NCBI GenBank assembly: GCA_039621445.1 | Contig: CP154954.1 | Coordinates: 15,766,140-15,830,139, forward strand | Reading direction: 5' to 3' | Source of the DNA: Euglena gracilis | Taxonomy: Eukaryota | Length of the DNA: 64,000 bases | Shown: one piece after another, positions 2,439 to 64,000 of the stretch | How the letters are laid out: each line of letters starts with the position of its first letter | Numbering within the stretch: the first letter of the stretch is position 1 | Position numbers and translations under genes: made by a program | The notes under the pieces: generated by a model | Databases searched by the model: none | Seen by the model: only the letters and a program-made list of their open reading frames with translations | What the model was told of the DNA's origin: nothing

Positions 2439-3116
2439 GTGTGCCTCGGAAGATCCACTGGGAAGGGAAGGGGAGCGGGGTTCCGGGCCAACAGCCAAAC
2501 CCAGAGTTTCATGTGCAAGATGGAAATTCTTCGAAAGCAAATGCCAAAGTTGATCTGGTAATGGCGTTTTTACCACCTGAAAAGAATTGGCGCAACAACC
2601 CCAAAGTTGTTCAAATAAGGTCAAAGGTGGTAAAAGTTTATTTTTAATTGTAGACGCTATGCCCCCCCGTGATTTGGCGACCCTGGGGGGTATTAAAGGG
2701 GCTGTCCCCACTCCCACAGCATGTTGGGGTCCGGGATGGTATTTATTTCCAACCCAATCCTTTCTTTGAACCTGGCCGCCCAAAAATTCCCCCCCCCCAA
2801 AAAGAGATTGAAACCTCAATCGGCACACAACCCACACTCCCAAGAAATACATTTTATAAAATCTGTTTTTTTTTGGACCTACAACTCTGTGCCCTTCGCA
2901 AAGGTCATAGAGTTGGCTGGGAGTCCTGGTTTGATGCCAGAGCGGAAGCTCCTTTGGAGTCATTCCATTTCATTTTATTTGAGAAATGCTCTTTGCTGCC
3001 TCATGCATGAGGGTGGGGGATGGGGGGAGGTGGAAGGAAATGTAATTTGTTGCTTTTTTTTGTGCTTCTGGTGTTGGTTTTTGCGTGGTATGTGGATCGG
3101 TCGGTGGGTGGGTGAA

Positions 3117-3155
3117 TGTGTGTGTGTGTGTGTGTGCTTGTGTGTGTGTGTGTGT

Positions 3156-3202
<47 letters not shown>

Positions 3203-3231
3203 CTTCTGTGTGTGTGTGTGTGTGTGTGTGC

Positions 3232-3267
<36 letters not shown>
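3117..3267. repeat. (TG)n microsatellite
   Basis: Directly visible. Confidence 0.95.
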
Positions 3268-3270
<3 letters not shown>

Positions 3271-3280
3271 GACTCTGCAG

Positions 3281-3438
3281 GCGTGGTGTTGGCGTTCCGG
3301 CCGAACGGGCGCACCACTTTCAAGTCCCTGCAGAAGGTGCTGCAGGTGTCGTACCTGCGGAGTCTCTACGCCCGCATCGTGGCCACCCACAACACCCTCG
3401 AGGCGTTCATCCTCGCCCACCAGACCGTGTTCAACAAG
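3281..3438 (+). CDS. Exon of host gene A (GVVLAFRPNGR...HQTVFNK)
   Basis: AG/GT boundaries, GC3-rich codons, phases compatible with both neighbouring exons. Confidence 0.8.
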
Positions 3439-4161: not shown

Positions 4162-4316
4162 GTGCACTGTGTTCTTTTGGTGACGTGGGGATAAATGGCA
4201 GGGCCAGGCATGGGCGGCAGTGTGGGTTCTGCACAATATAGACCCTCTGGAACCACAACTGTGCAAACGCCGAGAATGGTTTTTTTTTATGCACGCATCC
4301 TTGAGTGTCTTGGGGT

Positions 4317-4631
4317 CAGGGTTTTTTTTAAATCTTGGACCCCCAAGATGAAAAATTACTCTTGGACCCCCAAGGGGGAGGGGGGGTTTAGGGTGGGTCT
4401 GGCTGAGCCCCCCCCCCCTCCCGGCGGGGTCCCCAGGGGGGGGGGATATACTTTTCAGCGCCAAAAGCGCCGAAAATTTTTGAAAAGGTGCTATTTTAGC
4501 ATTTTTTTCGATTTTTTTGTCCATTTTCGGGTGAAAGTGAGAGGGTCCCCCGGGACCCCCCCGGGCCCCACAGGCCCCCCCCCCTCAGGGGGTGGGTGGC
4601 CCCCCCCCCCCGGTCTTAAAAAGAAACCCTG
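4317..4631. mobile_element. hAT-like MITE
   Basis: TIR CAGGGTTT..TTAA / TTAAAAAGAAACCCTG. Flanks CTTGGGGT / CTTGGGGGT are an 8-bp TSD with one extra G. Confidence 0.8.
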
Positions 4632-5850
4632 CTTGGGGGTTCATTGGTCGTTGCTGGCCTAGTCTTTTCCGATCCATTTTATTCCTCCATTCCCACCCCT
4701 GGACTTTTTTTTTTGAGCTGAAGAGGACCCGGGATCGCACCCGCCGGCTGACTGCCCAATCTTATGGACCGTAAGGAAATTTGTCCCCAAGCCCTGGGGG
4801 TCCAGCCAACCAACAGCCTTTCCCCAGCCCCGAACCCCCCCCCCCCATCGGCGAGTTTTACTTATTTTGCAGCCACCCCCATGTGAGAGGAGGATGGGTC
4901 AACCAGCCGCCTTTTCCCAATGCCCCAAATTTTCCCCTTGCCCCAATTTTCTGACCTCTGTGCTGAATCCGGTGTTTCGTAGGGCCTGATTACTTGATGC
5001 CCCGCTGATTTTTGCTTGAGTGGCAACCCAGCAACCACCATTTTGGGCTATTTGGATAGATTTTGGGGTGATTTTGGAGGTATTTCCAACCTGGCCGCCA
5101 GCAGAGAGCCCCCTCCCCCTCCCCTGCCCCTCGTCTCACCCCCCCCCCGACCCGGCATTTGTTATCCAGCCAGCTGGCTGGAACCTCCGGGGGCAGGGCT
5201 GTCATATGGAATTGAAACCTTGTGGGTGGTTCCCCGCCCCTAACCAGGCCTTCCCATACTTTCCATACTTCCAGGGGGCCCCAATTTTCAGGTCAAAAGA
5301 ATTTCTGAGTGGTGCCATGGTGGGAAGAAAGGTTGACCCCCTTACAGCCCTGCCATTGGAGTTTTGTTTTGAACTCTGCAGAAAAATGGCCCCAAAAAAT
5401 GGCCAAAAAATGGGCAAAAAAGGTCAGAAAGGGGCTGCTGCCCAATGGTTTAGGGGGGCCCAGGGGCGGCCTTCAGCGTCGCGGTCCTCGCCCCCGGACT
5501 CCCCTAACTCTTGGCCTAGACACAATTCTTGACACAAAGGGTATTCTGTACTGTTTCTGTGCTGTTTCTGTATTGTTTTCAGCACTGTTTTCTGCACTGT
5601 TTTCAGCTCATCCAGCCCCCTCCCCCAAAAACCACATAAACACCCTCGTCTCCACCTCCGCACGCAGCGGAGATTCTTTTCGGCCGAGGGCCCCCCGGAA
5701 ATCCCCCCGGGGAGGTCCAGACAGAGTTTTTTTTTTCTGGTGGCCGGCAAACTGGACAGCCATTGGACCCCCCAGGGGCTTGTGTGCAGGTTCAATTTTT
5801 TTTTGGTTTGCCCCCGGTTCGGGACCAGTGCCCCCCCCAACCCCCCCCAG

Positions 5851-5965
5851 CCCCCCCCCGCCGCCCGCGACCGCCTGGGGCCGAGCCTGGCCGCCACCGC
5901 GGCGCTGCCGCCCCCGCCGATGCCGACGCAGCGGGTGCTGGAGGTGCTGGACCAGCGGCTGCAGC
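5851..5965 (+). CDS. Exon of host gene A (PPPAARDRLG...VLEVLDQRLQ)
   Basis: CAG acceptor and GC-rich coding frame; the 3' boundary is a non-GT intron start. Confidence 0.65.
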
Positions 5966-6535
5966 CCCCAGGGCGGCGCGGGGACCCCGCCCACCCCCAG
6001 CCACCACCCCACGGTGTCGGGTTCGGGGGCCGCCGAAGGACAGAGGGGCGGGGGCCCCCCCCCCCCGTGTGCTTTCAGCCCAAAATGAGCGTTTTTCGAC
6101 CCCCCCCCCTGTCCCCCGTTTTTGGCCCGAAACCCATGGAGTTTGGGTCATTTCCGGGTCAAAGAAGTCTAAAAAAGCGGGAAAAAAATTGCCCGAAACG
6201 ATGTTTTTTTTTGGCCTCCCAGACCCGGAAACCCTGTTTTTTGAGCCGAAAATGAGCGTTTTTGAAACCCCCCATCGCCCCCCCCCCCCGTCTTCTGGTC
6301 TGGCGCTGTTGTTCGCCTCTGGCCCTGCTTGTCTGTGCACGTGGAGGTGGATGGGTGCCTCCCTCCCCCCCCCCCCTCCCCGCTTTCCCGGGACTTTGCC
6401 GATTTTTTGATGGTCGACGTTTTCCTTTGGCGCCGAGGGAATTCTTCCGGTGCTGTGGTGCAGGGGGGAGCGGGGGGGGGGTGGCGGGCGCCCCCCCCCC
6501 CCCCCCCCCGGGCCTGCCCGCCCCGCCCTGCCAGC
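5966..6535 (+). other. Non-conventional (stem-closed) intron
   Basis: 5' cccCAGGGCGGCGCGGG pairs 13/14 with 3' CCCGCCCCGCCCTGccagc. Removal gives in-frame LQ-RLT. No GT at the donor. Confidence 0.7.
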
Positions 6536-6616
6536 GCCTGACGGCCGCCGCGGAGGCCCAGCCGGCCGCCGTGCCGCCTCGCCTCTCCGCCGCCGCCCTC
6601 TTGGGCCAGGCCTGGG
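6536..6616 (+). CDS. Exon of host gene A (RLTAAAEAQPAAVPPRLSAAALLGQAW); 3' end approximate
   Basis: In-frame continuation of the previous exon. The following intron (~6615-7210) also has complementary ends (GGCCAGCCC.. / ..GGGCTGTCC). Confidence 0.6.
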
Positions 6617-7210
6617 CCAGCCCGCCCAAACCGTTGTTGAACGCCGGAAATGCCCCCCCCCCCCGGCCCAAGCCCCAGGGTTCGATCAGAAGGGTGGTGC
6701 AGTGACGTGGGACAGCGAATCAGGGAATTAGGGGGTTTAGGGATTTTTAAACAGGAAAAATCAAAAAAACGGTGCTTAAGGCTTTTTATGCCCTTTTTTA
6801 GGGAAAATTGAAAATTATATTTTCCAAGTGTGGTCCAAGGGCTGTCCGGGCATCGAATGGGGCTCAAACGCAAAAAAACCAAATTATTCTCGAGTTTAGG
6901 AGGATAGACAATTTCCCAGCGATTCCAGAAAGCATTTTTTCCTGGAGTTGGTTTGTTTTTATCGACATTTTTGCGACTTCATTTTTATTCGCTCGGAAAA
7001 AAAATTCCAAATGGTTTTTTAAGGGTTTTTAAGGTATTTTTTTTGAGGCCTCTTGGGCCGAAAATGTCCCTCTCCCAACCCCTTAGTCACAGGGAGGGGA
7101 ATTCCGGGTCTCCCAGATGGCTTCATGCCATACCCTGGGTGCCCCCTCCTTCCCCCCCCCCATCAGAGTGAGCAAATGGCGGATTCTCAATAATTTCGGG
7201 GGCTGTCCGG

Positions 7211-8477
7211 GCGGGTAGCCCCGGGTGGCTGCAATTCGTGAAGCCGCCCCAACTCTGCGCTCCATTCCGATCGCCCCCCCCCCCCCACACCGGGCAGCGG
7301 CCGCGCCTGCCGGCCAACTTCCCCACCCAGGCTCCATTGGCCCCGCGAACCCCATCGATGAGCTCCCGCGCCAGCTCCGAGGGCTGGTCCGGGCTGCCGC
7401 CCAGGGCCGCCGGGGGTATCGGACCGTCAGGTTGTGTGTGGGGTTGGACCAGAGTCCCGTTTGCCAGTTTTTTTGGGGCTCGAATGTTTCCTTCAGTGCC
7501 GAAGGGATTTCTCCTTCCTCGGTGTCGTCAGTGACATCGACATTGTTCCTCGGTGGGGTTCCGATCCCCCCACCCCACTTCCCGCACAGATCAGAAACCC
7601 CCACCACCACAACGCCACAAACGCCACAACACGCCACAACACGCCACGACACGACACACCACACCACACCACACCACACCACACCACACCACACCACACC
7701 ACACCACAACACCACACAACACAACACAACACAATAAAACACAACACAACACAACACAACACGCCCACCTCAGGCACCCTCTTCGGTGTCGCACATGACA
7801 CATCAAAAACTCCCTGCGACAGCACTCAACCCCCACCGCCAGCGTCGCCCGACCCCAGGTCAGGCCCAGTTCCAGCCAGGGGACGCCCATCAGGGGTGGA
7901 GGGGAAGCAGCCTTTTTCTGCCAATCCCATATTTCTCAGCCTGTCTGAGGTTAGCGTCCCTCAACGGCCTCCCCCTCCAAGTGGGGGGGGGTTGCTGAGC
8001 GACGCCCTGTACAGCGTGGCCCCCAGCCGCTCTGCCCGCGTCCCCGGCGGCGGCCCCCTCCAAGGTGCAGAAGCTGGAGGCGAAGCTGGGGGCCATGGTG
8101 CTGCACGCCCTGCGGGACGCGCAGGGCCGGCCGGGACCCCCGCCAACCAACCCGGTGGGTGGTGGCCAAGCACCAACGAAATGACTGGGCATGACTGGGG
8201 CGTGACTGGGGCGTGACTGGGGCGTGACTGGGGCGTGACTGGGGCGTGACCGGGCGTGACTGGGTCTGACCATCTGGGTGACCACAGGTGCTTGGTGAAG
8301 GAGGGGTCAGCCCTCCCCCCCCCACCGGGCCTTCCCAGGCCGCCCTGGGGCCGAGGCGCGCAAGGCAGAGGCGGAGAGCCCGACGCCCTCGTGCCGCAGC
8401 AGCAGCAGCGGCACGCGCACCAGCGGCCGCAGCTCGCAGCGTCTCGCCCTGTCGCCCACGGCGGAGGCCTCGCACCG
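7211..8477 (+). CDS. Region containing further candidate exons of gene A (~7211-7420, 7774-7858, ~8015-8124, ~8339-8477); boundaries unresolved
   Basis: GC-rich open islands, e.g. VQKLEAKLGAMVLHALRDAQ. 7774-7858 has AG/GT ends. Confidence 0.4.
7600..7761. repeat. (CACAC/CACAA)n pentanucleotide microsatellite
   Basis: Directly visible. Confidence 0.9.
8182..8264. repeat. 11-bp tandem repeat (TGACTGGGGCG)n
   Basis: About 8 units including variants. Confidence 0.9.
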
Positions 8478-10959
8478 TGGGCGTTGTGCGCTGTGCAGGG
8501 CAGAAGTTGGTTTCCGTTGGAGTTGCGCCTGATTTGCCAGTTTTCAAAGCCCCCACCGCCCGTTGTGCTCCCTAGTTTTAGTTCTTGACACTCGTTGGAG
8601 AATGATGGTTTGCCAGGCCAAAATACATACAAAAATAATGCAAAGGTGCCAGAGGGGTCAAAAATCCATCACTGAATCTTGTTTACCCTGGTGCAACCAC
8701 CTCATCTCCTCTCAGCATCCCCCCTGCTGCACTTTGATCCAAACTTTTCTAAGCATTTTTGACACAAATTTGCCCAAAGAGGTCCCAAAATTGCATTCCC
8801 GAGTTTCAGCCCGGCGCTCTGAAGCAGGTATACATTCAGTAATTTTGTTCATGCCGCTGAACCACTGTTTTAGCGGGGTACCTGGATCCCCCCAGTGGGG
8901 TTGAACCCACTGTCCCTACATCAAGCCCTGCCCATCCCACCCCCCTGTGTGGCCAAATTGCAGCATGAGAGGCGCCCAAATCTAAGTGTTATATCTATTA
9001 TGCACTGCAATTATTTTGAGCCCTCCAAATGTTTTAACGGAAATGGTGACAGAAAATGTCATGTGTTGTCGAAGTATTTTCAGGAATAATTTTGCTGTAT
9101 TTTGCTGTTTGCAACAATTCTTTTTCAGGAAAGAAAGGTATTATCAAGAAAATCACAATGTATTGAGACACATCGTCTCAACATGCTTCCATAATTTGAA
9201 TAAAAAGAGGTGATTTGATTGAAATGCATTAATACCCCCTCTGATTTACCTGGTCGCCATGAGTGGCTCTCCTGGTCTGGTGCCATGGATTCACTCAACA
9301 CCTGTGTAACCCCCCAGGGGGTTGTCAAGAGTGAGTCGGTGGGTTGGGGCCCGTGGACCCCCCCCCCCGCGGTGCGCCTTGGGTCAGGTTTTTGTCTGGC
9401 CAAAGGCTGAGCCGGAAGATTTTCGGCGTTTTCGGCCGATTTTGGCAGGTGTTTTTTAAGGTGGGTGTGTGAGTGGTTGACCCCCCGCAGGGGGGGGGGT
9501 CGTGGCTGGGTGGGTTTTCGAAAAAAGTGGGTAGGGGGGCTTTGTCCTTGGAAAAGTGCCCCCTCTGGGGGTCACCAAGTAAATCTATGTCTGGTACACA
9601 AGAAATTTTCTTTGGGAACCATAACAACGTTTAAAATCCCATACCTCTTGAGAGAACCACATTTTCTTCCGGAACAAAAATATGGGAAATATTAAAAAAT
9701 CAAATAAATAATAAATATATTAAATTTTCAATGGTTCTCCACTTCAAGAAAGCCTCGTGGTCATTTTCCTTTGTTGGTCTATTTTGGGGGTGGAACTCTT
9801 CAAATTTTTTCCGGTGGAGGGTGTGTGCGGAGGGGCAACGATTTTTCAGCCCTCGTGAATACAGCGGTACGTTATTGGGGGTGTTGTGTTTGATTCTCTT
9901 TCAAAAATGTCTATTGCTGGCCCGCGGGATGGGGATGGGAGAGGTTGACCTTCACATTCATCTTCTCACCCCAAAGCTTGGCCGCCGCCGTGCGCCGATT
10001 CTCAACGGGCCCCTGAGCCAGTCAGACACCCAGGCACCCCCCTTCCTCCCCCGTGTCCTTTTGATGTGCAAGCAACCTTATCGCTGGGTGTGCACTGTGT
10101 TTTGTCAGTCTGGCGTTGTGCCCTGCCCTGTCCTGTCAGCCCAATCGATCGCAGGCACACCACTTCAACATGCACTGCAACGCAAACACCCACGTTCATT
10201 CGTTTTCGGCAAAACAATGAAACCCTTCACCAATGAGCTGCATTTTTCGTGTTTTCGACAACCCAAATCGACAGTGGCAACTTCATTCAAACCAATATGT
10301 GTATTGTTTGCAGACAAAGCGGCAGCCTTGCATTCCTGCCTCCCCCCCCCCCCCGGGTTGACGGCGTTTGACGGGGTTCGACGATTTTTCGCGCTTCTGT
10401 GATTTTCAGGCGAAGGGTTGGGACCATGGTTGACGCTAGGAATGGGTACCTTCAGGACCGCACGGGGGGGTCCACAGTGGCGGGGGGGGGGGCCCACACG
10501 ATAAAGCAAAAAGCCTGGGGGCGATGGTGATGGCGGTGGGATGGGGGGGGGGGGGGGCTCCACCCTCCCAACGCCCGTGACGGAGCGGCCCTGGCGGAGA
10601 GTCCAATCGGCCTGAAGCAGCTCTAAACTAGCTGGAGTTGCGAGGGGGGCCTCGCGGGACCAGCCTGGCGGGGGCCCGTGGCGTCACCAATGGTATACGC
10701 CAATGACCATCCAAGCTTTTCACCTGTTTGCAGACAAGCTTGCCAATTGTTTCGGGGTGTATTAGACTTTTTGAATCAAAAATTATTCACTGATTTTAAT
10801 GGATGTGACATGGTGTCTATGTTTATAACGGTATTTGAGAACAACGCAAATTGCCATGAGAGTGTTATAGTTTTTGAGCTATTTGCAGTGCGCACAGATG
10901 AATGAGTTAGAAATGGGTGATATCGTAGGTGCGATGGATTGAAGCAGGCGCAGGAGACT

Positions 10960-12500
10960 CGTGAAAGGCACACTGCGCTCATCTCTCGTGCTGGTTCTTG
11001 CGAAGGCCCGCCAGACGTGACATTCGGCGGCCCCCGCCCCCCCGCGGCCGCCAGAGGGGCCTCGGGAGGATCCAGCGATGAGTTGGCGACGACCCCACCG
11101 CCCCCTTCCCGGTGATGATGGGGGGCGGCACCCTACCATTTCTATGTGTTGTGGGCCCGGGGGGTGGCCTGGGGTGTGACCGCCCCGGGTCAGGGTTTAG
11201 CGCCGGAGGGAAGCCTCCGGGGGGTACAGCAGCCAGTACTTTTTTGCAGCAGCCGCCGGGGGGGGGGGCGACAGTTGGGCAGCTGGCGGGAAAGTGGGTG
11301 GGGGGAAAAATAATAACAGTTGTGTTAAAGCAAATGGCATCTTTGGGTAGACGTTGGTTGACCTCCATATTTTGGCTAAAAAAAATACCCAGCATTTGGG
11401 CTTTTTTTGCCTGCTTTTTGGGATACCAGCCAGGTCCAGTTTCCAGCTTTGGGACCCCCCCTCCAGACCCCCATCCCCTAACGGGGGGGGGGGGGGCAGC
11501 ACAGCACTTTTTCCCTCTTTTCATGCCCTCCAAAAACAAATTGTTTTTTGCACCTGGATGTGACATGGGTTGTCTCCATGGTTTATGTTATTGTATTTGG
11601 AAACAGCTCACATGTATGTGGATATCCGCCTGAAACAATAGGGTATTAGACTCTTTGAATGTTTAGGCGGAGCGTGGTCAGGTGCCGCGGTCATTACGCA
11701 CATCTCTGCGCCCGCGTGGGCGTCAACCAGTGCACGCGCCCGTGCAAGGAAGGGCAGACCTGAGAAGTTCTCTAACGTTTGCAGGCTTCCGCCGACGCCC
11801 TCAGACTGGACATTCCGCGCGGACAGGGCTGCCCCCCCAGAGGCCCCCCGCCGGCGGCTCGGAATCCGAGAGCGATGAGTTGGCGGACGACCCCACCGCC
11901 CCCTTCCCGGTGATGATGGGCACCTGGGGCCCGGGCACCCTAGTGCTTCGTGTGCCCCCCCAGGGGTGTGGTCGGGAGGGTGTCACATCAGGGCCTGTAC
12001 CGGCTGCAGGGGTTTTCTTTAGCCGGAGGGAAGACCCTCCCCTGGGGGGGGTACAGCCAGCCAGTACTTTTTTTCCCAGTCAGCAGCTGGGGGGGGGGGC
12101 GAAATGAAGTTGGGGCCAGCTCGGCAAAGTGGGGCTAGCCGGGCTGGAGCGAAGAAGAATAAACAGCGTGTTAAAAGCAACCCAAAATGGCATCTTTGGG
12201 TAGACGTTGGGTTTTGACCTCCATATTTTGGCTAAAAAAAATCCAACCCAGCTGGATTTTGGCTTTTTTGCCTGCTTTTGGGATACCAGCCAGGTCCAGT
12301 TTCCAGCTGGCGGGACCCCCCTCCAGACCCCCATCCCCTAACGGGGGGGGGGGCAGCATTTTTTCCCCCAGCCAGCACTTTTTTCATGCCCTCCAAAAAC
12401 AAACTGTTTTTTTTTGCACCTGGGATAAGGGGGACGCCACTGGAACATGGACATATTTTTTTCTTCGGATGTTTTTTGGCACACAGCTCACATCCGGATT
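10960..12500. repeat. Degenerate tandem duplication (~10960-11630 and ~11740-12500) including an exon-like segment
   Basis: Shared strings such as AGCGATGAGTTGGCG..CCCTTCCCGGTGATGATGGG and ATGGCATCTTTGGGTAGACGTTGG. Confidence 0.8.
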
Positions 12501-12777
12501 CCCTCCAGGGATTTTTCTTTTAAGTTTCGAACCGGGGGGGGGGTCGGTCGGTCTTCCGCCCCTCCCCAGGAGGTTAACCCCAAGGCCTCCCAGGGGGGGG
12601 GGGGGTGCCCCATTAGAGGTGGTTTTCTTTGACACTTTTGGCCACTTTTCGGTGCAAGCGCAAATTTTTCTTTTTTGGCACCAAAATTGTCCCCCAGAAA
12701 AGTGGGTTCCCCTGGGGGTGCCCCCTGGGTGGGCTCCAGCCGGCCCGCGAAACCCCAACCCCTTAAGAAAACCCCTG
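12007..12777. mobile_element. hAT-like MITE
   Basis: TIR CAGGGGTTTTCTT / AAGAAAACCCCTG. Perfect 8-bp TSD ACCGGCTG (11999-12006 and 12778-12785). Confidence 0.88.
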
Positions 12778-12832
12778 ACCGGCTGTTTGCCATGGTGGAA
12801 AGTCTACGACAAGGCCGCCCAGGAATGATCAT

Positions 12833-13039: not shown

Positions 13040-15952
13040 GGGAGTTTTTTTTTTAACCCTTTAGAACCGCCGTTAGGCCCAAGGGACGGCCAAGGGCCGA
13101 ACTGGGGCTTGAACGGGCACAGAAAATGAAAATTCAAATAAAATTGACGTTTTGGGTGGATGGGCGATGGCTGAAGGATGCCTGAACTCACCTGAAGTCG
13201 ACCTGTTTTTGCCGTTGCATGGCATTTTTTTTGTTCATTTTTCCCACGGATAATTTATTGAATGCCCTTTTTTTTTGCGTTCAGGGACTCCTGTTGTCTG
13301 TTGTCTGTTGTCTCCTGTTGTCTGGTCCCAAGTCAACAGAAGGTCTCCAGTCCTGGCACGACCAATTTAAAATCTGTCTGAAAAGCACAGGTCTCCATAA
13401 AAACAGGCATCGGGGGGAAAGAGCAATTTTTGGCATCGTGGGCCGTCGCCCATCCATCCAAAACATCCAAAAGTGCGGTTTCCACCTAAGGGCGGTCGTC
13501 AAGGGCAGTCTTCAGGAAAAAGGGCCACCAGGCTTATTTGTCAAGTGACCATTTAAAAAGAAACGTCTGGAATCCCATGGCTGCACAAAGTGCCAGGAAA
13601 CCGTGAAGAAATTCGCTGAGAAATCCCGAGAAAATCTAAAAGTCACCTTTGTAAGTGGTGAACATTCACGTCAAAGAAAACATGTGAGTATTAATTGAAA
13701 CCAAATTGAACATGCCGTGAAGCGGCGAAGGAATATTTTTTGTTTGAGGAAACCACGTGAAATGATCATTTTTGAGGCCAGCGTTGTAATGCGCACTAAG
13801 TGAACGTTTGTTTCCATATTGAGATCTCGAAAATCGGGCATTTACCACCAACTCCTCCAGGTCTGCACCCACCCACCCCGTGGGGTTGGAGATCAAGGGG
13901 ACCCACTATTGGGGGGGCCATTTTGGGGTCCAATTTCTTTTTTCCGGCATAAAGCCCTCCTCCCGGGGGTACCCAGCTCGATCTCCATCCCCCCTGGGGG
14001 GGAGGGGTCAGCCCGCTGACCCACCCACCCTCCCTCCCCCATCACCACCACACTCGTTTGGTCCAATTTTTAGGGATCTTATTTGTGGGTTTTGCTCGTT
14101 TAACCCGGGGGAGGGCTGGTCAGCTGGTCAGCAGTTGGGTGGACCTGACTGCCGCCAACCAGCCAGCATTGGGGCAGCGCCTTGCCCCCCTGTCCCCGGC
14201 ATGTGAGCCGGGGAGGATGCCCTTGTGGTTCATTGTGAGGCCAACCATCGTTTTCGAAAATTGAGTGGGTTTGTGCCGTTGGACACCCCCCCTGATATAC
14301 CAAGTGTCCCAAGGGTCAAAGCACAAGCCGCAAGCCGTAGGCCAGGTTGCAGGAAGGACTTGAAGGGTTCTAGGCCGATTTTGGATGATTTTGGTGAGTG
14401 GTTGGGTGGGTTTTTGGACCGGGATCAGGTTTTGTTTTTTAGCCTTGGACCCCCAGAGGTATGATGGGTGGGTCCTGTGGTCCAAATGTGCTCTGCGTTC
14501 AGGCGTGGGGTGTGCCTCCCTCCCTGCCCTTATGTGGAATTTTGCTTGGGAGCCCCCGTGGGGGGGGGCGGTCAACCAGCAGCATTTCTTGCAGCCTGCG
14601 CAAATTTTCCAGCCTCTGAGCTGGATCCCCCCCGGGGTCGGTAAAAAACGCCCTGCCCCCCCCCCCCCCCCGCCGGGGGGGGGGGGGGGCGGCTGGGTTG
14701 CCCGGGGGGGGGGGGGGGGCGACAAAAAGCAGCCTGAAGTGACACACAGAAAGTGAACGAAAATTTACGGCCTTTTATTCCTTGGGCGTGGTCAGTTTTC
14801 ACTTGGACCCCAGGGTGGCCGGTCCCCCAGAGGGGGCGGGGGTCGAACTGCCCAGTTTTTCCCCCGAAAAAATGACTGACTGTTTTTTTTTTCTGAACGA
14901 GCGGAAGGTGAAGATGGGTCGGTCAAAAAAGACTGCTCGGCGCGGGGTGTGCCACGGTCGCATGGCGTCGTCCAGCCCCGGCCCCCTGGGGCGTGCCCTT
15001 CCAGGCCAGCGCGCGCACCCCAGCGCCCTGGCCGGCGCACCCCCAGCGGTGCCTGCCGGCCGGCTGGCCAGGGCTGCCCGGGACCCCCGGGAACTTGTGG
15101 GTGGTGGGCATGTACTCACGTGGTCACTGGCCGACCCCCCGCCACCCCCAGGGGGGGGATTGGTTTTTTGGCCAAACCCCCCCAGGGGGAGTCGACAAAA
15201 AGCCATTGAAATAACCTGGCGCCGAAGGTGCTGGGAAAATAGTTTTGGACGTTTTTTTTTCATGTTTGTAGTCAATTTGGATTTGGATCCCAGAGAGGCT
15301 ACCCACCAAGGGAGGGTAGTTTCGATACCGGTACCATTCATTGCTTAAATTGCTTGACATGTCCGACCGCATTCCAAGGGGGAGGGTGACTGATTCATTT
15401 TTTCAGAGTGACTTGACTGGTCCCCCCCCCCCCAGGATGGGGTTGGCCAGGAACGACCAAAAGTGCCACCCAGCGCCATTTTTTGGGGGGTTTTGGCCAA
15501 ATAATTCCCATTGGGTTCAAGCCATTTTGGCCCGAGTGCCTAAAGTAACCAACCTCCCCAAAGGGATGGGAATTGGGTGATTTTTTTGAAAGGTGATTGA
15601 CTAGTTTTTTTGAAAGTGGAAAGTTGTTCCTACCCCCCTGTGGTTAATAAGCAATGGCATGGTTGTGACTAATTGGTTCCCCCCCCAAAGAAATTATTAG
15701 GTGGTTTTTGGAAGTGTGGAGGTGACATGAAAATAAAAAATTGCATGGGGGGAGGTGGAGGTCTGACAGCCCCCCCCCCCTCATGTACGCTCCTGGACGA
15801 TCAAGGGGATTCTTTCTGGAACTGGCGAGTGGTGTTTTTTCCTTCGAATTTTTTTTAAAGTTTTCACCCAAGTTTTGGCACAGGCCTTTTTTTGCCACCC
15901 CAACCAGCTGGCTGGGGGGGGGGTCGACCTCCCACTGGGCCTTCCCGTGCAG

Positions 15953-16090
15953 CCATGGGGGCGGGAGTGCCGCTGGGACTACACGCAGGGCCGCTATTAC
16001 TACCTCGACCACCGCACGCGAACGTCGCAGTGGGACCCGCCGGCCAAGAGTCCGCAGCCGCTGTGGTGGTTGCCCGGTTTAATACGATGA
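15953..16090 (+). CDS. Terminal exon encoding a WW-like domain (probably the end of gene A)
   Basis: ECRWDYTQGRYYYLDHRTRTSQWDPP matches the WW consensus. CAG acceptor and TGA stop. Confidence 0.75.
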   Translation, partial: PWGRECRWDYTQGRYYYLDHRTRTSQWDPPAKSPQPLWWLPGLIR

Positions 16091-17140: not shown

Positions 17141-17184
<44 letters not shown>

Positions 17185-17702
17185 TTTTTTTTTATCATTT
17201 GAGATCCTTCCAGCACCCCTCAAAGTTCAAGAAAGGCCCCATTGAGGTCAACAATACGCTCTGTCAATGGAATGGTGTACCAAACAAATCATGGAAAATT
17301 ACTCCCTATGTCTGAATGACCCCAGGGTATCCAATAACCACCCCCGCAGTCAGAGGACATTTTTTCGAGGTTTTGGCCATTTGTTTTTTTCTTCGCATTC
17401 CGCCGCTGTGTTGAAGAATGTTGCGCCCAAAACCGGCCACAGAATTTGGCCAAATGCCCATTTATTTTGACACTTCATGGGAAAAATTTTTTCAAATTGC
17501 CCCAAAATCTTGTGGGCTCAGCGCTGGAAGGAAAAAATTTACTTTTGGAGGGCTTTCGAGGCACCCTCCGAGCCAGTTTTTTTGGACTTGTCCGAAGCCA
17601 TATACCACCCCCTTGTGGATGTACACCTTTCTGGTCACAAACCCTGTATCCAACGACCACCCCCCCCCGTCGGAGACACCAGGTTACTAGTTATGCGGGG
17701 GA

Positions 17703-17746
<44 letters not shown>

Positions 17747-17768
17747 TTTTTCTTTTTTTTTTTTTTTT

Positions 17769-17847
<79 letters not shown>

Positions 17848-18340
17848 AATTGAAAAATTTTTTTTTTAAAAAAATTGCATTTGCTGACCTGTCACTCAAG
17901 CTGATCAGGAATTACGACGCTCTTTTTGGAGATGGCCTCACAGAAACCAATTGGCCCCAAATAACGTTTGGATGTGCCAAACCTTTTTCCATCTTTTTTC
18001 ATCTGGGGGTGCACTCGGGTGGCTGAAGTTTGGTCACTGCACAGTGCCTCTTTGGGCCACCCCTTACGTACCTGCCAGTGCTTACAAGGGCTTTATCTCC
18101 CCAGGACAGGATTTTGTTTCTGAGCTGGAAAGTTTAATGCCTGACCCCCACCCCCTGGAGTCACTTTGAGATCCTTCAGCACCCCTAAAGTTCAAGAAAA
18201 GGCCCCCTGAGGTAACAATCCGCTCTGTCAATGGAATGGTTGTACCAAACAACATCATGGCAAAATTACTCCCTCTGTCTGAATGACCCGGGTATCAATA
18301 ACCACCCCCGCAGTCAGAGGACCTTTTCTGAGGTTTGGCC
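16940..18340. repeat. Degenerate tandem duplication (~16940-17380 and ~17840-18340) with long poly-T tracts
   Basis: GCATTTGCTGACCTGTCACTCAAGCTGATCAG and following sequence occur twice. Confidence 0.85.
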
Positions 18341-19757: not shown

Positions 19758-22700
19758 GGTTTTCAGGTGGAACAGTGGCCATGGTGTCAAATATCAGGGA
19801 GTCCGCTTTTCAGATCTTTTGTTTTTTCTATTACAGCATGGAGTGTCACATCAATCGATGATTCGTTTCCTAAGTCTTACGTCTTATGAAGCAGCCGACG
19901 TTGGCCTCAAAGATAAATTTGTTTTAAAACAAATGTGCACCCCAACCCCTTTGTGAGCACACTAAGAGGATGTCTGTTTAAAATTCCTTGAAGCTCACGG
20001 GGCACGCATATTGGCATGGAAATCTTTATCATTTTTCCTTTTAGGTTCTGCCATAAACCGATGGGCTTCGGAGTCTACAATTTTTTATCGACCCCCAAGG
20101 GTCATTCTTCTTCTCTTTCTTGGATTTGTGGTCCCTTTTTTTTTTCCGAAAAGCAGTTAATCATCACTCCAGGGGAGGGGGGGGGTTCGGAAACTCGGGA
20201 CCCCACCCGGGAAAAAAATTCCAAAAATTTTCTGGCGCTTTTGGCATCGTTTTGTGTTTTTTTTTTTGCTGATCATCCTCCCGGGGGCCCCGAGTTGGGC
20301 ACCAAAGCCAGCCCTGAAAACCATTCATCCCCCCAAAGGAGAGGGGGTGGCCAGTGATCATTTGATTGCATGCTCTGGATTAGTAAATGATGGTCAGAAT
20401 GCAACAAGCTGAAAGCCTAAGCTGGAACAGGGGGATTGACCCCCGCGATTTTCCTGCAGTTTCCGGCATTTTTCGTTGCAATATTTCTAAAAAAAATTGT
20501 TATTTTTCCTGAAGGCCTCCGATATCAGTTTCTCCCGCTGAGTGTGATGAAGCCGATGAGCCGGGGGCTGCCCTGGAAACCCTGTGCGAATCCCCTGGGC
20601 CCGGCCGCCATGCAAAGACAATAAGCGTCTGTCTGGCATCCGACCCCCTAACCATTTCCCTTCTCTCTCCCGATGCTACCCTGCCAGCCTGTGCCAACAC
20701 TGGGACACTTCATTGAGAAATGCCACTGAGCGATGCCAGAAAAACATTTTGGAGGCTGTCGTCCTCAATCATCAGGCGAATTGGGCGAGTGAGAAGTTGT
20801 CCTCTTCGCTTGTGCTGCCATATCGTTTCGCAACAAAGTGCCGGGGGTTGGGGGAGGGGGTTGTCTGCAGTTTCTGACAAATAGAATACCAGCCTCCTCA
20901 GTGTCAATTAGAAGATACATTTCAATCCCCCCATGGCCTCATCCCACTGCTTCTGGGCAAGTTTCCCCCCCCAAGATTGGCTTTATGTTTGCAACTGGAA
21001 CCTTGGCCTTCATATTTTATGCCTTTGTGCATGGCCTACTGAGTATTAGTAACATTCAAAGTTGGCCTCTGTGCCTTCAGCCTCGGCGCCAGAAACGGAC
21101 GGCAATTGTGGTGCGCATTGTGGTGGTCAATGCCCAGTGTGCCAGGCTGGCATGCCCGGTGCCCAGGAGGCATGGACCACCAACGCCACCTACCGGGCCT
21201 CGGGCCGCGCTTGGCCGCCATCTGACCCTCCCCCCTCCCCGTACACACACACTGAGCAACACACCATGTACGGTACCCCTTTTGGCAGGCTGGGTTTTCA
21301 GGGCCGACCCCGCCCAGAGGGGTGTGGCACATGGTCAATGCTGGAGTGCCTGATCACGCGACGCCCAAGGAACTCCAGTGGCAACGGTGCCAGGAACCCA
21401 GAACAGGCTGACAGGAATGTTTTCCGTCCTTTTTTCGGCCTGCAAACTCCGGCCCAAGCCCTGTCCCCCGGGGTTGATCCAACTCAGCCTGCACTCCACC
21501 ACCACCACCACCACAACGCTTACGTGCCCCTCTGCTCCGCTGGTCACACAACGTCGCAAAGCCTGGCTGTTCGCCTTCCTGGCTGAGCATACCGCTGATT
21601 TCGCGGAACCTCAGCTTTGGGGGGGGTCGGCGTGTTTGTGAGGGGCAGGGGAGTGACCGTGGCCAAAATGTGATCTGTACTATACAGAAAGTATGGTACA
21701 GATCACAGAGTTTAAATGAGAAACTTAAGTTTCTCACCTTAAGTGAGAAATTTAATGCGGCAGCTTGTTTTCCGTTGCCATTCTCGGGCAGGATTTGATA
21801 TAAGGAGGGCGTACATGGTTTAGGTGGGGGGTGTCCCCCCCCCCCCCACCCCCCTCCTGGCCCGCAGGGGGGGGGGTCCGGACCACCCCCCCCCACCTGC
21901 CAGGGGGTCCGGACCGACCCTCGGGGGGGGGGGGGGTTCCCGGGACCCCCCCCCAAAAAGGGTCAATTTTTCCCCCGGCGCTTCGTGCCGAAATTTTTTT
22001 TTTGCATTTTGGCACATTTTTGCCCAAAAAGTGCCCAAAATGGCACTTTTGGTCGTTTTGGGGGTCAAAATTTTTCGGTAACCCAGACCGCGCAACTGTT
22101 TAGGTGGGGGGGAGAGTCCCCCCCCCCACCCCCCCCCCTCCTGGCCCGCAGGGGGGGGTCCGGACCACCCCCCCCACCTGTCCTTATATCGAACCCTGTT
22201 CTCAGGTGTTTCCCGGGATTCCGGTGATTCCCATGCCCGCCTCGGCTTGTTCCACACCATTTGGCCAAGGCCTTCAGAAGTGCCCTGTCCCCCTCATTTC
22301 GGGCCCCAGCGGTTCCACAAGGCAGAAACCTCCTTCTGAGCCCTGACCCCACATTGCCCGGGCAGGTCGCCTGCCGCGTTTCCTCCCCGACCGGTTGCCA
22401 ATACAGGGGTGGAGCAGGTTGGAGCCGCGCCTGCCACCATAGAAATGCCAAAAGTTTGGATCTTGCGATGAGCCCAACGGCAGGCCGGAGAGGATCCACC
22501 AAAAACCCTAATTTTGCCATCCAGAGTTCGCAGAACAATGCGCCGCACAGAATAATGAATGAATGAATGAATGAATAAACATCGCTGGGAGGTGTTCTCC
22601 CCGGATGGGACCCACAGCACTTTGAGCAATCGGCCGCCCCCGCCGCACGGAGGGTGTGCTGAAACGGACCGCAAAGGTGTTGCAGAGTCCCCATCGTCCG

Positions 22701-24135: not shown

Positions 24136-26827
24136 GTTTGCCAGGGGTGATTTGCACACTGTTATTCGCATAAGAAGTTTGTGTTGACTAATATATTTAT
24201 GTTCTTGTGATTCTCAGGTGATTCGGTGATTTTGCTCTGCCCTTTTTCTTCGGCTTTGCTAGAGCATGGAAGGGGTTTTTTTATTTATCACACACACACA
24301 CACACACACACAGACACGCACACCTTCCTCTTTCCAATTGTGTTCCGAGGAAAGATCCAGCGATGAGCCGCCTTGCCCAGCATCCCTCTTTTGCCATGCT
24401 GAGCCATATTCATTACCCTCAACCCATCCGAGGCACATTAGGTGCTCTGGTTTCCATGACTGGGCGAGGCCAAAACCAGACAACGGTGCCCGGAATCCCC
24501 TGAAGAGGAAGGGTCAAGGAGGTGAGAGATGTACCATTTGTGTCCAAAATCGATTTGGTTCACGGTTTCCCGTCACACAACAAACAAACCCCCCTCCAGC
24601 TCTGTCATCATGGTTAGCACCATTCTTTTTCCGAATTTGCTCTGTGCATAAAACAGTTCCAGAGAGCATCACCACAGGCAGGTGCTCCAATTTTGGGGAA
24701 CCCGAGCTGTGAGATGGGACAGCTTGACGGGACAGCTTGACGGTTAAAAGTTGAGCAACGGGTTCATTTTTTCAGGTTATTTATTCCATTTTATTTCTCT
24801 GGAAAGGTGATCTCTCGCTTGGTGGGGTCCATGGGTGGTTTTTTTTTTGTATTTTTTTTTTGGAAAATCGAGCAACCCGGAAATAGGACTGTTTCGCACA
24901 AACAGGCACGCAATTCTGTGGCAGCTCTGCCCCCAGTGTGCAGAACTTTGGTGAAGCATTTCTTTCCTGGGTGTGTTTCTCTCCCTCATCCAACGCATCG
25001 TGAACACCGCACCGGCAATGTGGTTCAGGGTCACCCCGCATTACTGACCAGAACGGTCAACTTACCAAATGCCAAGCAGAAAGCCCCAAATTCTCACCCC
25101 GTCCCTCAATCAAGGGTGCGTGTGCTGTGCCGCCCTCTGGCCTCGCCCCGAGGCCAATCAGAGGTAATTGTCCGGTGCTGATGGGCGAGGGCCTGCTTGG
25201 AGCCGGGGACTGCCCTGCGGACCCCCAGTGGAGCCATCGTCACCGTCGTCCTGGCCGAGATTGTGGCTGTGCCTCCTTGGAGCCCAGCGGAACCTTCCCT
25301 TCCCAGCAGTTGTGTCCCGCCATGATTTCTGCTTTTGGGTTGCGCATTTGCACTGCTCGGGAAGAATGGGCTTCGAGGTCCGAGGTCCGGAAGTCCCGTC
25401 TTTGCAACTGTTCCCCCTTTGTCGATGGTTTGGGCCACCCACCCATCCAAACCCCAACCAAAATCGGCGGACGCTTTTCCCGGCCCAGTCCTTGGCCAGG
25501 CCAAAATCTGACCCTCGACTTGAGGACCCATCCCCCACTCACCCACCCAGTCTCAAAAACCCACCGAGGTGGGGTCACACAGGTGTAAATGGAATGAATT
25601 TGCTTAAGGATTGCAGTACCCCCCCCCCGGGGGCGGGGGGCTGGACTGCAGCTAGTCCAAATTTGGCTAGTGGGATTTCTAACAGACCCCCCCCCCGGGG
25701 GGGGGTCTGCTAGCAGGGCTAGCTAGTGGGAAAAATTTTTCCAGTGATCGGCGCAAAGCGCCGGAAATTTTTTTGGGGACCCCCAAAAATGGCCAAAAAT
25801 GCCCGTTTTTGGCCATTTTGGGGAATTTTTGGAGCAAAGTCTGCCAAAAATCTATTAAAAACCTCATTTCCACCTCGGCGCACAGCGCCAGAGGAAAAAT
25901 TAATTTCCAGTTGGGGGGACCCCCGGACTAGTCCATTTTTTCCAGTGTCTAGCCAACTGGCTAGCCAGACACCTCGGGCTCCGCACTTTGCCCTTGTGAG
26001 GCCATGCCTTGCTCGCCGGCGGTGTTGCTGTGTGTCTGTTCGCTGCGCTGGGTTAGTAGTCCCTGCTTAGTGCCTTTTTCGCCGGAGTTGGCTGATTCTA
26101 AAATTGCCCTTCGACAACCCAGAAGAAAGGAATTGATTTTCAAACGAAGGAGAACCAAAAGGAGAAGTCAACATCAAAAGAATATTCAGAAGTTGACGAG
26201 CCAGACGAATTTCAATTGACGAGTCAAATATCAATTTCAAATTTTGACTTCAATGAGCAATGAAGTGGGGAAGAAGCTGGAAATTTGCGGTCGACGTGAA
26301 CTACCTGGAGCAGCTGTCGCCGCGGCAGCCGGACGACCTGGAGGTGCAGACGACAACTGGCGAACCGTGGCCGCCCCGCCCCAGATCCCAGTTTCAGAAA
26401 TTTCCCAGCAGAAAACCCCACCCAGTGACGGCCACGGCCTGTGGACCACAGTGGCCAGAAAGACCAGGAGGAAGAAGGAACCCCCAGCCCAGCAGAACCG
26501 CCTGGGTATTGGGGCCCAATCAAGCAAGAGGGGACAGAAGCAGACCACAGGATTCCAAAGACATGTTCCACAATGGCGCCCAGCAGCCAGACCAAAATTC
26601 GAACAGAAGTGGAGAAGATGGAATCAAGGCCAAGGTGGAGGCCATGGTGGCCAAATCCGGAAGAGGGAGAAAAGGTCTGCCAAATCCCCCCAAACTTTCT
26701 AGCACAACAACCCCTCTCAAGGGGAAGAAGGGGGGGCACAGCAGCCCCCCCAGATTTCACGTGAAGCTGGAGACCAACGTCAAGCTCAACCCCAGGGAGG
26801 GGAAATCATGGCCAAGGCGGCCAGAGT

Positions 26828-28153
26828 TTGAATCATTTTCATTTGCACGGCCATGGTGGCCAAGAAGTGCAGGGCCATGGAGGCCATTATCTTCAGGGCC
26901 AGGGCGGCCAGAACTCACAGGGCCATGGGGGCCAAAGGGGTGGTCCAGAAATGGCCCCCCAGAAGCTAAGGTGCCAACCTTATATCAATCATCCCCGGCA
27001 ACCCCAGGAGGATGCCCCAGAAGGGGCAAAGGAGGACAAGGGGGTCAGCCCCCCAATTCATTTAATTCAACCCATGGAAGGGGAAATCAAGGGGGGGACC
27101 CTCAGTGGCCCTCCTATGGTATGTCATCAGACAACACAAAGGACAAGATGGAGCAGAGAGTCTGTGAGAGAGAGGGTGGGTGCATGCACCCCCCCCCATC
27201 CATTACGTCTTGGAAAAGATCAAACTCCAGGGGCACCAAGGGTTGTTAAATGTCCCACAACCTCCAACCAACCCCCAGAAAATCATTTGATTGGAGAGAT
27301 AAATTACATGGAGGAAAAGTGGGGGGACACCCCCCTCCACCAGAGACTGCAAAAAAGTCTGAAATGGTGGCTGAAAAATGCCCCCCCAGCAACCTGTCAA
27401 CTTATAAAAGATGGAATTCAACCCCCTTGGGTCAAACCACCAAAATTGTCCACGCATCCAAAAAGCAGAGCCAACCTAGACCTGAAACAGGCAGAAAAAA
27501 TCCTGTTGGATTACGAAAAAACTGGTTCCATAAAGAGGGTTCAGGATGCAGGAACCCAACATATAATTCCCTGGTTCCTGATATCAAAACCAGAGGGGGG
27601 GCAAACGAAATGGATGTTCATCAGCGACTGCAGGGAAATAAACCAAAATTTTCCCGTGAAAGCCTTCAAATTAGATCACATTCAAAACATTTTCCCAGTT
27701 TTGGAGAAAGGCCACTGGGCGGCCAAAATCGACCTGAAGGACGCATATTTTCACATTCCAGTGAACCCAACCCTAAAACCCTTTCTAAGGCATCAGGTGG
27801 GGGGGCAAACCTGGGAATTCCAGGCAGGCTGTTTTGGCTTAAATGTGATGCCACAAATTTTTATGTCAGTCATGAAGACATTCGAAAAACGTTGGAGGAG
27901 AAAAGGAATCCAGGTTTTCATCTACCTGGACGACATTTTACTGGTTGCCCCCACTCAAAATACATTGCAAAAACACTTGAGCAGGGTTGCAAAAGACCTA
28001 ATCGACTCGGGGTTCAAAATAAATGTCAAAAAGTCAACCTTGGAGCCCACACAGGTCGTAAACCACTTGGGCTTCCAGTTAAATTTCCAAGATGGAAAAT
28101 TACAAATTCCCCCCCAAAAAGTGAAAGCAATAAAAAAGGAGATGGGAAAATAG
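26828..28153 (+). CDS. DIRS reverse transcriptase (preceded by low-complexity ORF1-like sequence from ~26244)
   Basis: Motifs KIDLKDAYFHIP, CFGLNVMPQIF, YLDDILL and HLGF. Confidence 0.92.
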   Translation: MNHFHLHGHGGQEVQGHGGHYLQGQGGQNSQGHGGQRGGPEMAPQKLRCQPYINHPRQPQEDAPEGAKEDKGVSPPIHLIQPMEGEIKGGTLSGPPMVCHQTTQRTRWSRESVRERVGACTPPHPLRLGKDQTPGAPRVVKCPTTSNQPPENHLIGEINYMEEKWGDTPLHQRLQKSLKWWLKNAPPATCQLIKDGIQPPWVKPPKLSTHPKSRANLDLKQAEKILLDYEKTGSIKRVQDAGTQHIIPWFLISKPEGGQTKWMFISDCREINQNFPVKAFKLDHIQNIFPVLEKGHWAAKIDLKDAYFHIPVNPTLKPFLRHQVGGQTWEFQAGCFGLNVMPQIFMSVMKTFEKRWRRKGIQVFIYLDDILLVAPTQNTLQKHLSRVAKDLIDSGFKINVKKSTLEPTQVVNHLGFQLNFQDGKLQIPPQKVKAIKKEMGK

Positions 28154-28760
28154 TGAAAAAAGATTTCATGTCGAAAAGGCAGTTAGCTGCCATTTTGGGC
28201 CAAATCAGGTGCAACCTCATGGCCCTGCCCTTTTTAAGGGCTTTCACAGACTCCCTGACAAATTTTTTGGTCAACAAGTCTGCAGCCCCATGGGATTCAA
28301 AGCATTCCATTTCACAGGACATAAAAGCCCAATTGAGGGAAATAAAAAATCAGCTGGACACCTGGGGTGGCAGACCTTTCCCCCAAAGTGCAACAAGGGA
28401 GTTGCACTCAGACAGCAGCACCCATGCCTGGGGGGGGCTGGACATTCATACTGGAGAAATTGTCCAAGAGTTTTGGAGAGAAAACTCCATTTTACATATC
28501 AATGTAAAAGAATTACGTGCAGCCATCAGCACAGTGAAAAGTCTAAGCAGGCCAGGGGAAACGGTGTCCCTTTCAGTGGACAATCAGGTAATTTATTATT
28601 ACCTGACAAAGAGGGGGGGGGGGGCAGAAAAGACCCTTTCAACAGCCTTCTAATGCCATTTTCAAATGGTGCATGGAAAACAATTTAAATCTACAAGTGA
28701 AATGGGATCCTTCACAGGAATGCTTAGCAGACCCCATAAGCAGGTGGGAGTGAGGGGATT
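28150..28760 (+). pseudogene. DIRS RNase H, frameshifted
   Basis: Motifs LHSDSSTHAWGG, HINVKELRAA, SVDNQ and LADPISR. Confidence 0.88.
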
Positions 28761-28789
28761 ACTCACTGGACCCCCAGCTTTTTAAATGG

Positions 28790-29230: not shown

Positions 29231-29297
29231 CGATTTCCTGGGGAGAAACCCCAGCTTAAAGCGTTATCAAAGCGCTTTTACACTTTTATGGGTAATC

Positions 29298-37587: not shown

Positions 37588-37588
37588 C

Positions 37589-63990: not shown

Positions 63991-64000
63991 TAGGCGGGTG

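Follow-up and report, generated by a model that had tools for sequence, protein, structure and literature searches.

hAT-like elements with 8-bp target-site duplications and putative nonconventional introns share an end family in a Euglena gracilis contig

We analysed a stretch of 64,000 nucleotides of Euglena gracilis DNA (assembly GCA_039621445.1, contig CP154954.1, positions 15,766,140 to 15,830,139 of the forward strand), called the window below. It holds MITEs (miniature inverted-repeat transposable elements) that begin with CAG, end with CTG and are flanked by direct repeats of 8 bp, and putative nonconventional introns whose ends belong to the end family of one of these elements, which has a perfect target-site duplication (TSD). 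The nonconventional introns of this genome probably include such elements, each together with one copy of its TSD, removed by cutting 3 nt ahead of CAG and 5 nt past CTG. This is the best available explanation of our data, and it fits independent published facts.

In knock-in assays, CAG and CTG were essential, the donor-side spacer had to be 3 nt and the acceptor-side spacer had its optimum at 5 nt, with one additional nucleotide tolerated; synthetic introns of 50 nt built on these rules were spliced (PMC12501133). A sequence-only reading of the window had described the same intron geometry and had noted that hAT transposons duplicate 8 bp, which agrees with PMC3260210. From the sum of 3 nt and 5 nt, which is indeed 8, it had proposed that splicing at these offsets removes a MITE and exactly one TSD copy.

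Elements with CAGGG...CCCTG ends and 8-bp flanking repeats

Five elements were read from the window; M1-M4 have no assigned strand.

4317-4631 (4309-4639 with flanking repeats): MITE M1, 315 bp, from direct sequence reading
12007-12777 (11999-12785 with TSD): MITE M2, 771 bp, perfect 8-bp TSD ACCGGCTG
53013-53608 (53005-53616 with TSD): MITE M3, 596 bp, perfect 8-bp TSD ATCATCAT
21789-22198 (21781-22206 with flanks): MITE M4, 410 bp
62839-63326 (62831-63334 with flanks), minus strand: element E5, 488 bp, M3 end family
11190-11557, plus strand: partial copy of M2 (5' half) within a tandem duplication of ~800 bp

The sequence-only reading had named M1, M2 and M3 with CAG...CTG ends and 8-bp repeats, and direct inspection confirmed all three, with flank identities of 7/8, 8/8 and 8/8. 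M4 and E5 were absent from its list. M1 has the left end CAGGGTTTT and the right end AAACCCTG; its imperfect flanking repeats are CTTGGGGT (4309-4316) and CTTGGGGG (4632-4639). Both inverted ends of M2 read CAGGGGTTTTCTT, with ACCGGCTG on either side. M3 has CAGGGCAGAA at both ends and belongs to the family defined by the end motif CAGGGCNGNNNGGG; its flanks are both ATCATCAT, a perfect match, but the word is periodic with a period of 3 nt. The ends of M4 are CAGGATTTGATATAAGGA and CAGGGTTCGATATAAGGA (16/18 matching by eye) and its flanks TTCTCGGG and TTCTCAGG (7/8). E5 is flanked by GGTTCGGG and GGCTCGGG (7/8). Nine of the ten ends start with CAGGG, the exception being the left end of M4 (CAGGA). 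In M1, M2, M3 and E5, the 14-nt inverted ends match at 11-13 positions (12-13 in M1-M3, with 13/14 in M2). Terminal stems of -17.9 (M1), -24.0 (M2), -37.4 (M3) and -30.9 kcal/mol (M4) were predicted, none of which was reached by any of 200 shuffles. Including putative introns, all eight end pairs tested gave stems stronger than shuffles, with 5-8/200 shuffles as stable for the GC-rich ones.

We are confident that these are real MITEs with a hAT-like structure. Their size (315-771 bp), their inverted ends and their 8-nt flanks of 7-8/8 fit this class. They are too short to encode a transposase, and the open reading frames (ORFs) overlapping M1, M2 and M3, among the 130 ORFs of the window, have no Pfam match. 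The 8-bp TSD and ends of the C/TAGGG... type point to hAT. Ends of Ac/Ds, a hAT element with an 8-bp TSD, read C/TAGGGATGAAA (PMC3260210), and the ends found here agree with them in the first five bases only, so that 'hAT-like' is a fair structural label and nothing beyond.

An origin from Merlin rather than hAT was considered, as E. gracilis has two Merlin families, each with 8-bp TSDs. All Merlin ends begin with 5'-GG (PMC8101967), whereas here the flanking repeats directly abut CAG and CTG, so that CA and TG are part of the element and its ends begin with CA. We regard descent from Merlin as highly improbable.

The element interiors appear to be repetitive. When contigs of a DNA run from the same organism (X1) and of a run from a related organism B (X18) were matched at an identity of at least 90%, contig depth over the interiors was 100- to 10,000-fold that of single-copy bins in both runs, a figure inflated by the 90% threshold and by G/C runs. 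In the bin 4194-4655, which holds M1, the X1 depth was ~130,000 compared with ~60-180 in single-copy bins. Within the window, only M2 has a long second copy (M2 positions 16-417 against 11202-11557: 78% identity, E 3e-86). The left junction of M1 is spanned by one X1 contig (4034-4418).

Judged by open frames and by G+C content at third codon positions (GC3), M1-M4 all lie in DNA with a non-coding look. GC3 around M1 is 0.38-0.55. We tried M1 as an exonic insertion, since its removal leaves a stop-free frame across the site, and rejected it because GC3 is 0.38-0.43 and the flank differs from the X1 contig at many sites. M2 lies ~80 nt past an exon-like block (11826-11930; judged by eye) and is probably intronic, because the surrounding sequence shows indels relative to its tandem duplicate. 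M3 is probably also inside an intron: an exon of a dual-specificity phosphatase (Pfam PTP-SAK/DSPc, minus strand) lies 38 nt upstream and ends at AG|GT; stops occur in the downstream flank, where GC3 is 0.24-0.38. An exonic insertion of M3 was rejected on the same AG|GT and GC3 grounds and because a stop follows 11 codons on.

Two observations concern the surroundings of these elements. The region 10740-12420 is a tandem duplication of ~800 bp. Its unit includes the 5' half of M2 as well as an exon-like block (11000-11123 and 11790-11930), and the duplication is therefore younger than the M2 insertion. On the minus strand, 52606-61086 contains dispersed exon-like blocks, probably of a single gene, with the phosphatase active-site exon at 53647-53800 (PTP-SAK, E 1e-6).

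Identity of the 8-nt flanks compared with chance

Pairs of CAG and CTG 60-3000 bp apart whose 12-nt ends matched at at least 10 of 12 positions were collected from the window (set 1, n=199). Their 8-nt flank identity was centred on 2, the chance level. At least 7/8 was reached by four pairs; permuted flanks gave a mean of 0.18 and a maximum of three, and 0/2000 permutations reached four. For at least 6/8 the count was seven (expected 1.29; 2/2000 permutations reached seven). When the flank length was varied from k=4 to k=12, k=8 yielded two perfect pairs and four with one mismatch, and zero were found at k=7 and at k=9-12. When either flank was displaced by 1-3 nt, 0-2 pairs remained, so that the signal is confined to the abutting register. 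The control with the reversed sequence gave 0/78 pairs.

A second set was defined by CAGGG...CCCTG with ends matching at at least 9 of 14 positions (n=202). Here, 11 pairs had flanks of at least 6/8 (permutation mean 1.95) and five of at least 7/8 (mean 0.29), counts that 0/5000 permutations reached in either case. Five of the 11 are probably spurious, being of low complexity or overlapping. The pairs 4434-4796, 4586-5126, 4586-6111, 5773-7137 and 6676-8930 (flanks 6-7/8) were rejected as chance matches because of G/C-run flanks or overlap with M1.

In a scan free of any end sequence, 8961 inverted-end pairs were found, 17 of which had flanks of at least 7/8 after complexity filters. Four of the 17 were CAGGG elements; the remainder consisted of AT-rich satellite, G-runs and palindromic extensions of hairpins. 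The pairs at 30144 and 37566, with flanks of 8/8, were rejected as TSDs because they are palindromic extensions of long hairpins.

Could such repeats arise when staggered double-strand breaks are repaired with filler DNA, with no transposase involved? This is the published interpretation of a strain-specific, newly gained gapC intron in E. agilis with eight-nucleotide direct repeats at its junctions, longer than those of older introns (PMC4770533), and it would be in keeping with the finding of no transposase in the 130 ORFs of the window. However, break repair predicts neither a fixed repeat length nor matching inverted ends nor families of thousands of copies, whereas the repeats found here occur at k=8 only, always abut CAGG...CCTG ends and enclose interiors of high contig depth. 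We consider this origin very unlikely.

The opposite direction of descent, in which introns spread as RNA (for example by reverse-transcribed circles or reverse splicing) and so gave rise to the non-genic copies, is also hard to credit. Excised nonconventional introns have been reported to be circular (PMC11282704, PMC12621601), and reverse transcriptases are abundant in the window. An excised intron, however, would bring along its old 3+5 nt; instead, each copy has its own local 8-mer repeated on both sides, which is the product of a staggered cut in target DNA. We give this scheme very little probability.

Putative introns with ends of the M3 family

The 14-nt motif CAGGGCNGNNNGGG occurs 12 times in the window (0.52 expected), a count that was reached by 0/100 shuffles. 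Eight of the 12 sites form four convergent pairs: M3 (flanks 8/8), E5 (7/8) and two putative introns, I5966 and I8122 (6/8 each). An alignment of ten ends revealed further subterminal blocks common to the family, and ~60 nt of one E5 end resemble M3 at 77%. The intron-like features are as follows.

5966-6535 (CAG at 5969, CTG ending at 6530), plus strand: putative nonconventional intron I5966, from the CAGGGCNGNNNGGG family and frames
8119-8352 (CAG at 8122, CTG ending at 8347), plus strand: putative nonconventional intron I8122, from the CAGGGCNGNNNGGG family and frames
7399-8039 (CAG at 7402, CTG ending at 8034), plus strand: possible third nonconventional intron, in the same gene as I5966; ends 12/15 matching by eye
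15069-15957 (feature 15067-15957), plus strand: intron-like element of the CAGGGCNGNNNGGG end family whose 3' CTG reads ATG

I5966 has the ends CAGGGCGGCGCGGG and CAGGGCGGGGCGGG. Its flanks GCAGCCCC and CCAGCGCC are the TSD-like pair that the sequence-only reading had pointed out, and they match at 6/8 as described there. The interior of I5966 appears to be a high-copy repeat, with an X1 depth of ~2.2 million at 6204 (inflated by G/C runs and matching at 90% identity); positions 6161-6263 are 80-82% identical to 55916-56086. I8122, which adds a second 6/8 remnant to that reading, is flanked by GGGACGCG and GGGCCGAG; it was located by the open-frame test and not by its flanks. Contigs of organism B, ~95-97% identical to the window (7799-8221 and 8238-9368), span both junctions of I8122, which is therefore older than the split of the two organisms. 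A further addition to the earlier reading is E5, with its 7/8 TSD in an apparent exon.

A unit of ~90-100 nt that is tandemly arranged at 55260-56100 also makes up the interior of I5966 (6080-6275). Given the X1 depth at 6204, it appears to rank among the genome's most abundant sequences.

The feature 15069-15957 carries, 5 nt inside its end, a pyrimidine tract and CAG that are immediately followed by a WW-domain exon (Pfam WW match from nt 15953, E 1e-9). Removal of 15067-15952 as a GC..AG intron would keep the frame (by eye). The feature has the look of a nonconventional intron turned conventional, its 3' splice site being provided by the transposon end.

The three putative introns (I5966, I8122 and E5) resemble euglenid nonconventional introns in having CAG at +4..+6, CTG at -8..-6, a terminal stem, borders other than GT/AG, a purine opening the downstream exon and direct repeats at the junctions. 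For 5966-6535, 8119-8352 and 63329-62834 (minus strand), the spacing of CAG (3 nt) and CTG (5 nt) from the borders follows from the way in which the borders were set. Their stems of -24 to -36 kcal/mol were reached by 5-8/200 shuffles. In all three, the exon downstream opens with a purine (G, G and A), in agreement with the published preference (PMC12501133).

Coding frames and RNA depth at the putative introns

Intron borders were placed by open frames, GC3 and coarse RNA depth. When the element and 8 nt were removed from E5, I5966 and I8122, the stop-free upstream frame with the highest GC3 met the downstream frame with the highest GC3 in 3/3 cases. The GC3 values of the joined frames were 1.00 and 0.95 for I5966, 1.00 and 0.95 for I8122, and 0.86 and 0.90 for E5 (stop-free). 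We also varied the offsets over the whole chain of five exons at 5870-8470. All four offset pairs that sum to 8 reached GC3 values of 0.938-0.939 at best, compared with 0.809-0.890 for the six pairs whose sums differ from 8. Intron 2 of this gene at 5.9-8.5 kb has no unique closure.

As a candidate nonconventional intron, E5 runs from 63329 to 62834 on the minus strand, within an apparent coding exon. The single mismatch between its flanks falls on a synonymous third codon position. Among the elements of the window, it is the best candidate for an insertion that turned into an intron.

RNA runs X21 and X24 were mapped to the portion of the window before 17101, with low depth. Reads were limited to bins that hold predicted exons of the 5.9-8.5 kb gene. 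In X21, 14 reads fell on 6576-6579 and the rest of that bin was nearly empty; seven reads were found at 7330 and almost none in 7428-7889.

Proposed path from insertion to intron

The following course of events would account for these results. Non-autonomous cut-and-paste DNA transposons, whose CAGGG...CCCTG ends begin like those of Ac/Ds, would duplicate 8 bp on insertion, and families of such elements would be present in very many copies in the genome. If an element lay in a transcript, its inverted ends would pair, and CAG opposite CTG at the base of the stem would be the signal for the nonconventional pathway. Cleavage at 3 nt upstream of CAG and 5 nt downstream of CTG would then take out the element and exactly one 8-bp TSD copy, restoring the message as it was before insertion. 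Since CAG...CTG reads the same on both strands, removal would work in either orientation. An exonic insertion would thus be silent from the start and could persist as an intron whose duplication decays. The cutting rule and the newly gained intron with 8-nt repeats are taken from the cited papers; that these particular sequences are spliced, and that a transposase of the hAT type moved them, we infer.

A wider claim can be made only tentatively: most euglenid nonconventional introns may be hAT-like MITEs plus one 8-bp TSD copy, with a 3-nt/5-nt rule matched to the duplication so that excision from RNA is precise in either orientation. Exonic insertions would be neutral at birth. A pyrimidine tract is likewise present in the ends of the family, and AG in some copies, so that loss of CTG could turn a copy into a conventional intron, as 15067-15957 suggests.

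If this is true, neutrality at birth would explain why nonconventional introns make up ~72% of introns in E. agilis (71.8% in PMC12501133, with junction repeats in 84.4% of all introns). A common origin would connect three so far separate facts: the need for CAG and CTG with spacers of 3 nt and 5 nt, the junction repeats by which most intron borders are blurred, and the 8-nt repeat at the newly gained gapC intron. In E. gracilis, nonconventional introns with uncertain borders (ss-variant) number 11,656 compared with 4,495 ss-invariant ones (PMC11170887). There would also be a mechanism that makes a transposon harmless on landing in an exon, in either orientation, and the search for the excision machinery would be narrowed to something that measures distance from a stem. 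The proposal predicts an in-register peak of flank identity at 8, introns within MITE families and strain differences in filled and empty sites.

The sequence-only reading had staked its proposal on a flank-identity peak at 8 bp, intron ends within MITE families and splice offsets that sum to 8. Among the window pairs, identity peaks exactly at k=8; the ends of the putative introns are those of the perfect-TSD element's family; and the published offsets sum to 8. Its step from MITE to intron was borne out in part. The geometry, the common end family and the frames (3/3) speak for it, but the three elements that it had named lie themselves in non-coding-looking DNA, none being an exonic insertion.

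The elements share with Ac/Ds and other hAT transposons the 8-bp TSD, ends beginning with CAGGG, short non-autonomous derivatives and, as we propose here, exonic insertions that can be removed from RNA. Maize Ds insertions were reportedly processed as introns (attributed to Giroux, 1994). Removal of Ds is carried out by the spliceosome, which uses cryptic sites and is usually imprecise. Unlike this, the removal proposed here would be precise by construction and would use a non-spliceosomal pathway; also unlike the maize system, no hAT transposase was found among the 130 ORFs of the window.

In the introners of Micromonas, Aureococcus, dinoflagellates and others, and in the MITE-derived non-canonical introns of Fritillaria, MITE-like elements that have inverted ends and TSDs likewise turn into introns once inserted, and part of the TSD also comes to lie within the intron (PMC11282704). 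These introns, however, are spliceosomal, with splice sites made from element and TSD, and the TSD of Micromonas is 3 nt (PMC11282704). In the Euglena elements, by contrast, the proposed cut sites would be set by distance from the stem, and these distances add up to the length of the TSD. The Merlin families of E. gracilis, too, are Euglena DNA transposons with 8-bp TSDs, but with GG rather than CAG ends (PMC8101967).

The general idea of a MITE origin has been known since 2014, when it was proposed with no euglenid transposable elements then known (PMC3935182), and it was restated in 2024, when TSD-like repeats were called frequent (PMC11282704). In the intron papers a MITE origin is hypothetical and, in the text that we could access, no elements are named (PMC3935182, PMC4770533, PMC12501133, PMC11170887). 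The window, in contrast, contains genuine non-genic copies that carry 8-bp TSDs and belong to one end family with introns whose splicing is predicted. In the accessible published literature, supplements not included, we found no statement equating 3+5 with the TSD length and no account of CAG...CTG elements with 8-bp TSDs in Euglena. The geometric match and the concrete element families thus appear to be new.

Points that weigh against a transposon origin of the introns

Several results argue against the proposed path, some of them on the side of the elements. The sample of flanks is small, and GC-rich flanks push up chance identity; by our binomial estimate, at least 6/8 is expected in ~1-2.5% per pair. 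No hAT transposase or hAT-related Pfam family was found in the 130 ORFs of at least 125 amino acids in the window. The target preference of hAT elements is nTnnnnAn. The left TSD copies do not follow it, with T at position 2 in 3/5 and A at position 7 in 1/5; both occur jointly only in ATCATCAT, a sample of five being too small to weigh much.

Other points concern the end family. The motif CAGGGCNGNNNGGG was defined after M3, E5 and I5966 were already known, so that the 6/8 of I8122 is the sole unbiased flank score, and four of the motif sites have no exact-motif partner. The putative intron 7399-8039 has flanks of only 4/8 and ambiguous borders, which are compatible with one of two equally GC3-rich upstream frames; the flanks of 15069-15957 are 4/8 as well. 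Genome-wide papers give weak end motifs only and, in their accessible text, no sequence families of introns (PMC12501133, PMC11170887). If most introns arose from MITEs, most must therefore be old.

As to splicing, GC-rich DNA is open in many frames. Between 72 and 90 stop-free chains were obtained per offset pair, and as such chains exist at every offset pair, the frame test is weak. E5 is the single case of an exonic insertion that would be spliced, since M1-M4 look non-coding. None of the 15 joints listed from the RNA reads was a splice junction, all 15 lying at homopolymer or repeat sites (798 further joints were counted). Two protein searches for spliced products, made with exon 6538-6678 and with phosphatase exon 53647-53796, gave no match.

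These points bear on a further explanation, in which the MITEs are real but resemble the introns in form by coincidence only. Every hAT-like element would start with CAG, end with CTG and form a terminal stem, and introns would need a CAG:CTG stem independently, having arisen otherwise, for example by drift of conventional introns. The non-coding surroundings of M1-M4, the inferred borders of the introns here, the 4/8 flanks of the two end-family introns 7399-8039 and 15069-15957 and the weak published end motifs (PMC12501133) would all be expected under it. It does not predict, however, that a 14-nt motif occurs 12 times instead of 0.52 times, that a perfect-TSD element and putative introns have subterminal blocks in common, that three putative introns keep flanks of 6/8, 6/8 and 7/8 in the exact 8-nt register, or that a newly gained intron of E. 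agilis has 8-nt repeats (PMC4770533). We judge coincidence to be unlikely and retain descent of the putative introns from hAT-like MITEs as our explanation.

Other features of the window

An Rfam search of the window gave 0 matches. The region 26765-30053 is a retroelement with a reverse transcriptase (RVT_1, E 4e-20) in a DIRS-like arrangement, and degenerate copies lie at 30.7-32.5 kb and 44-50 kb. It also shows a weak match to a Dam-like adenine methyltransferase (E 3e-4, below the Pfam cut-off); retrotransposons that bear methyltransferases are the subject of a 2026 preprint in which E. gracilis is mentioned. Remains of the Ty3/gypsy type are found on both strands of 37260-43245, with an integrase core and a zinc finger at 41010-42045 (minus strand) and a chromodomain and an SH3-like domain at 37818-38348 (plus strand). 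The same region contains a 329-nt inverted repeat of 98% identity (37260-37588 and 40353-40681) and a 300-nt tandem pair of 99% identity (40575-41204). Long simple repeats at 3058-3294, 7585-7770, 17142-17850 and 63500-64000 comprise (GT)n, pentamers rich in CA, poly-T tracts longer than 100 nt and a satellite rich in GT. Inside the elements, homopolymers of G or C with a length of 10-20 nt are common.

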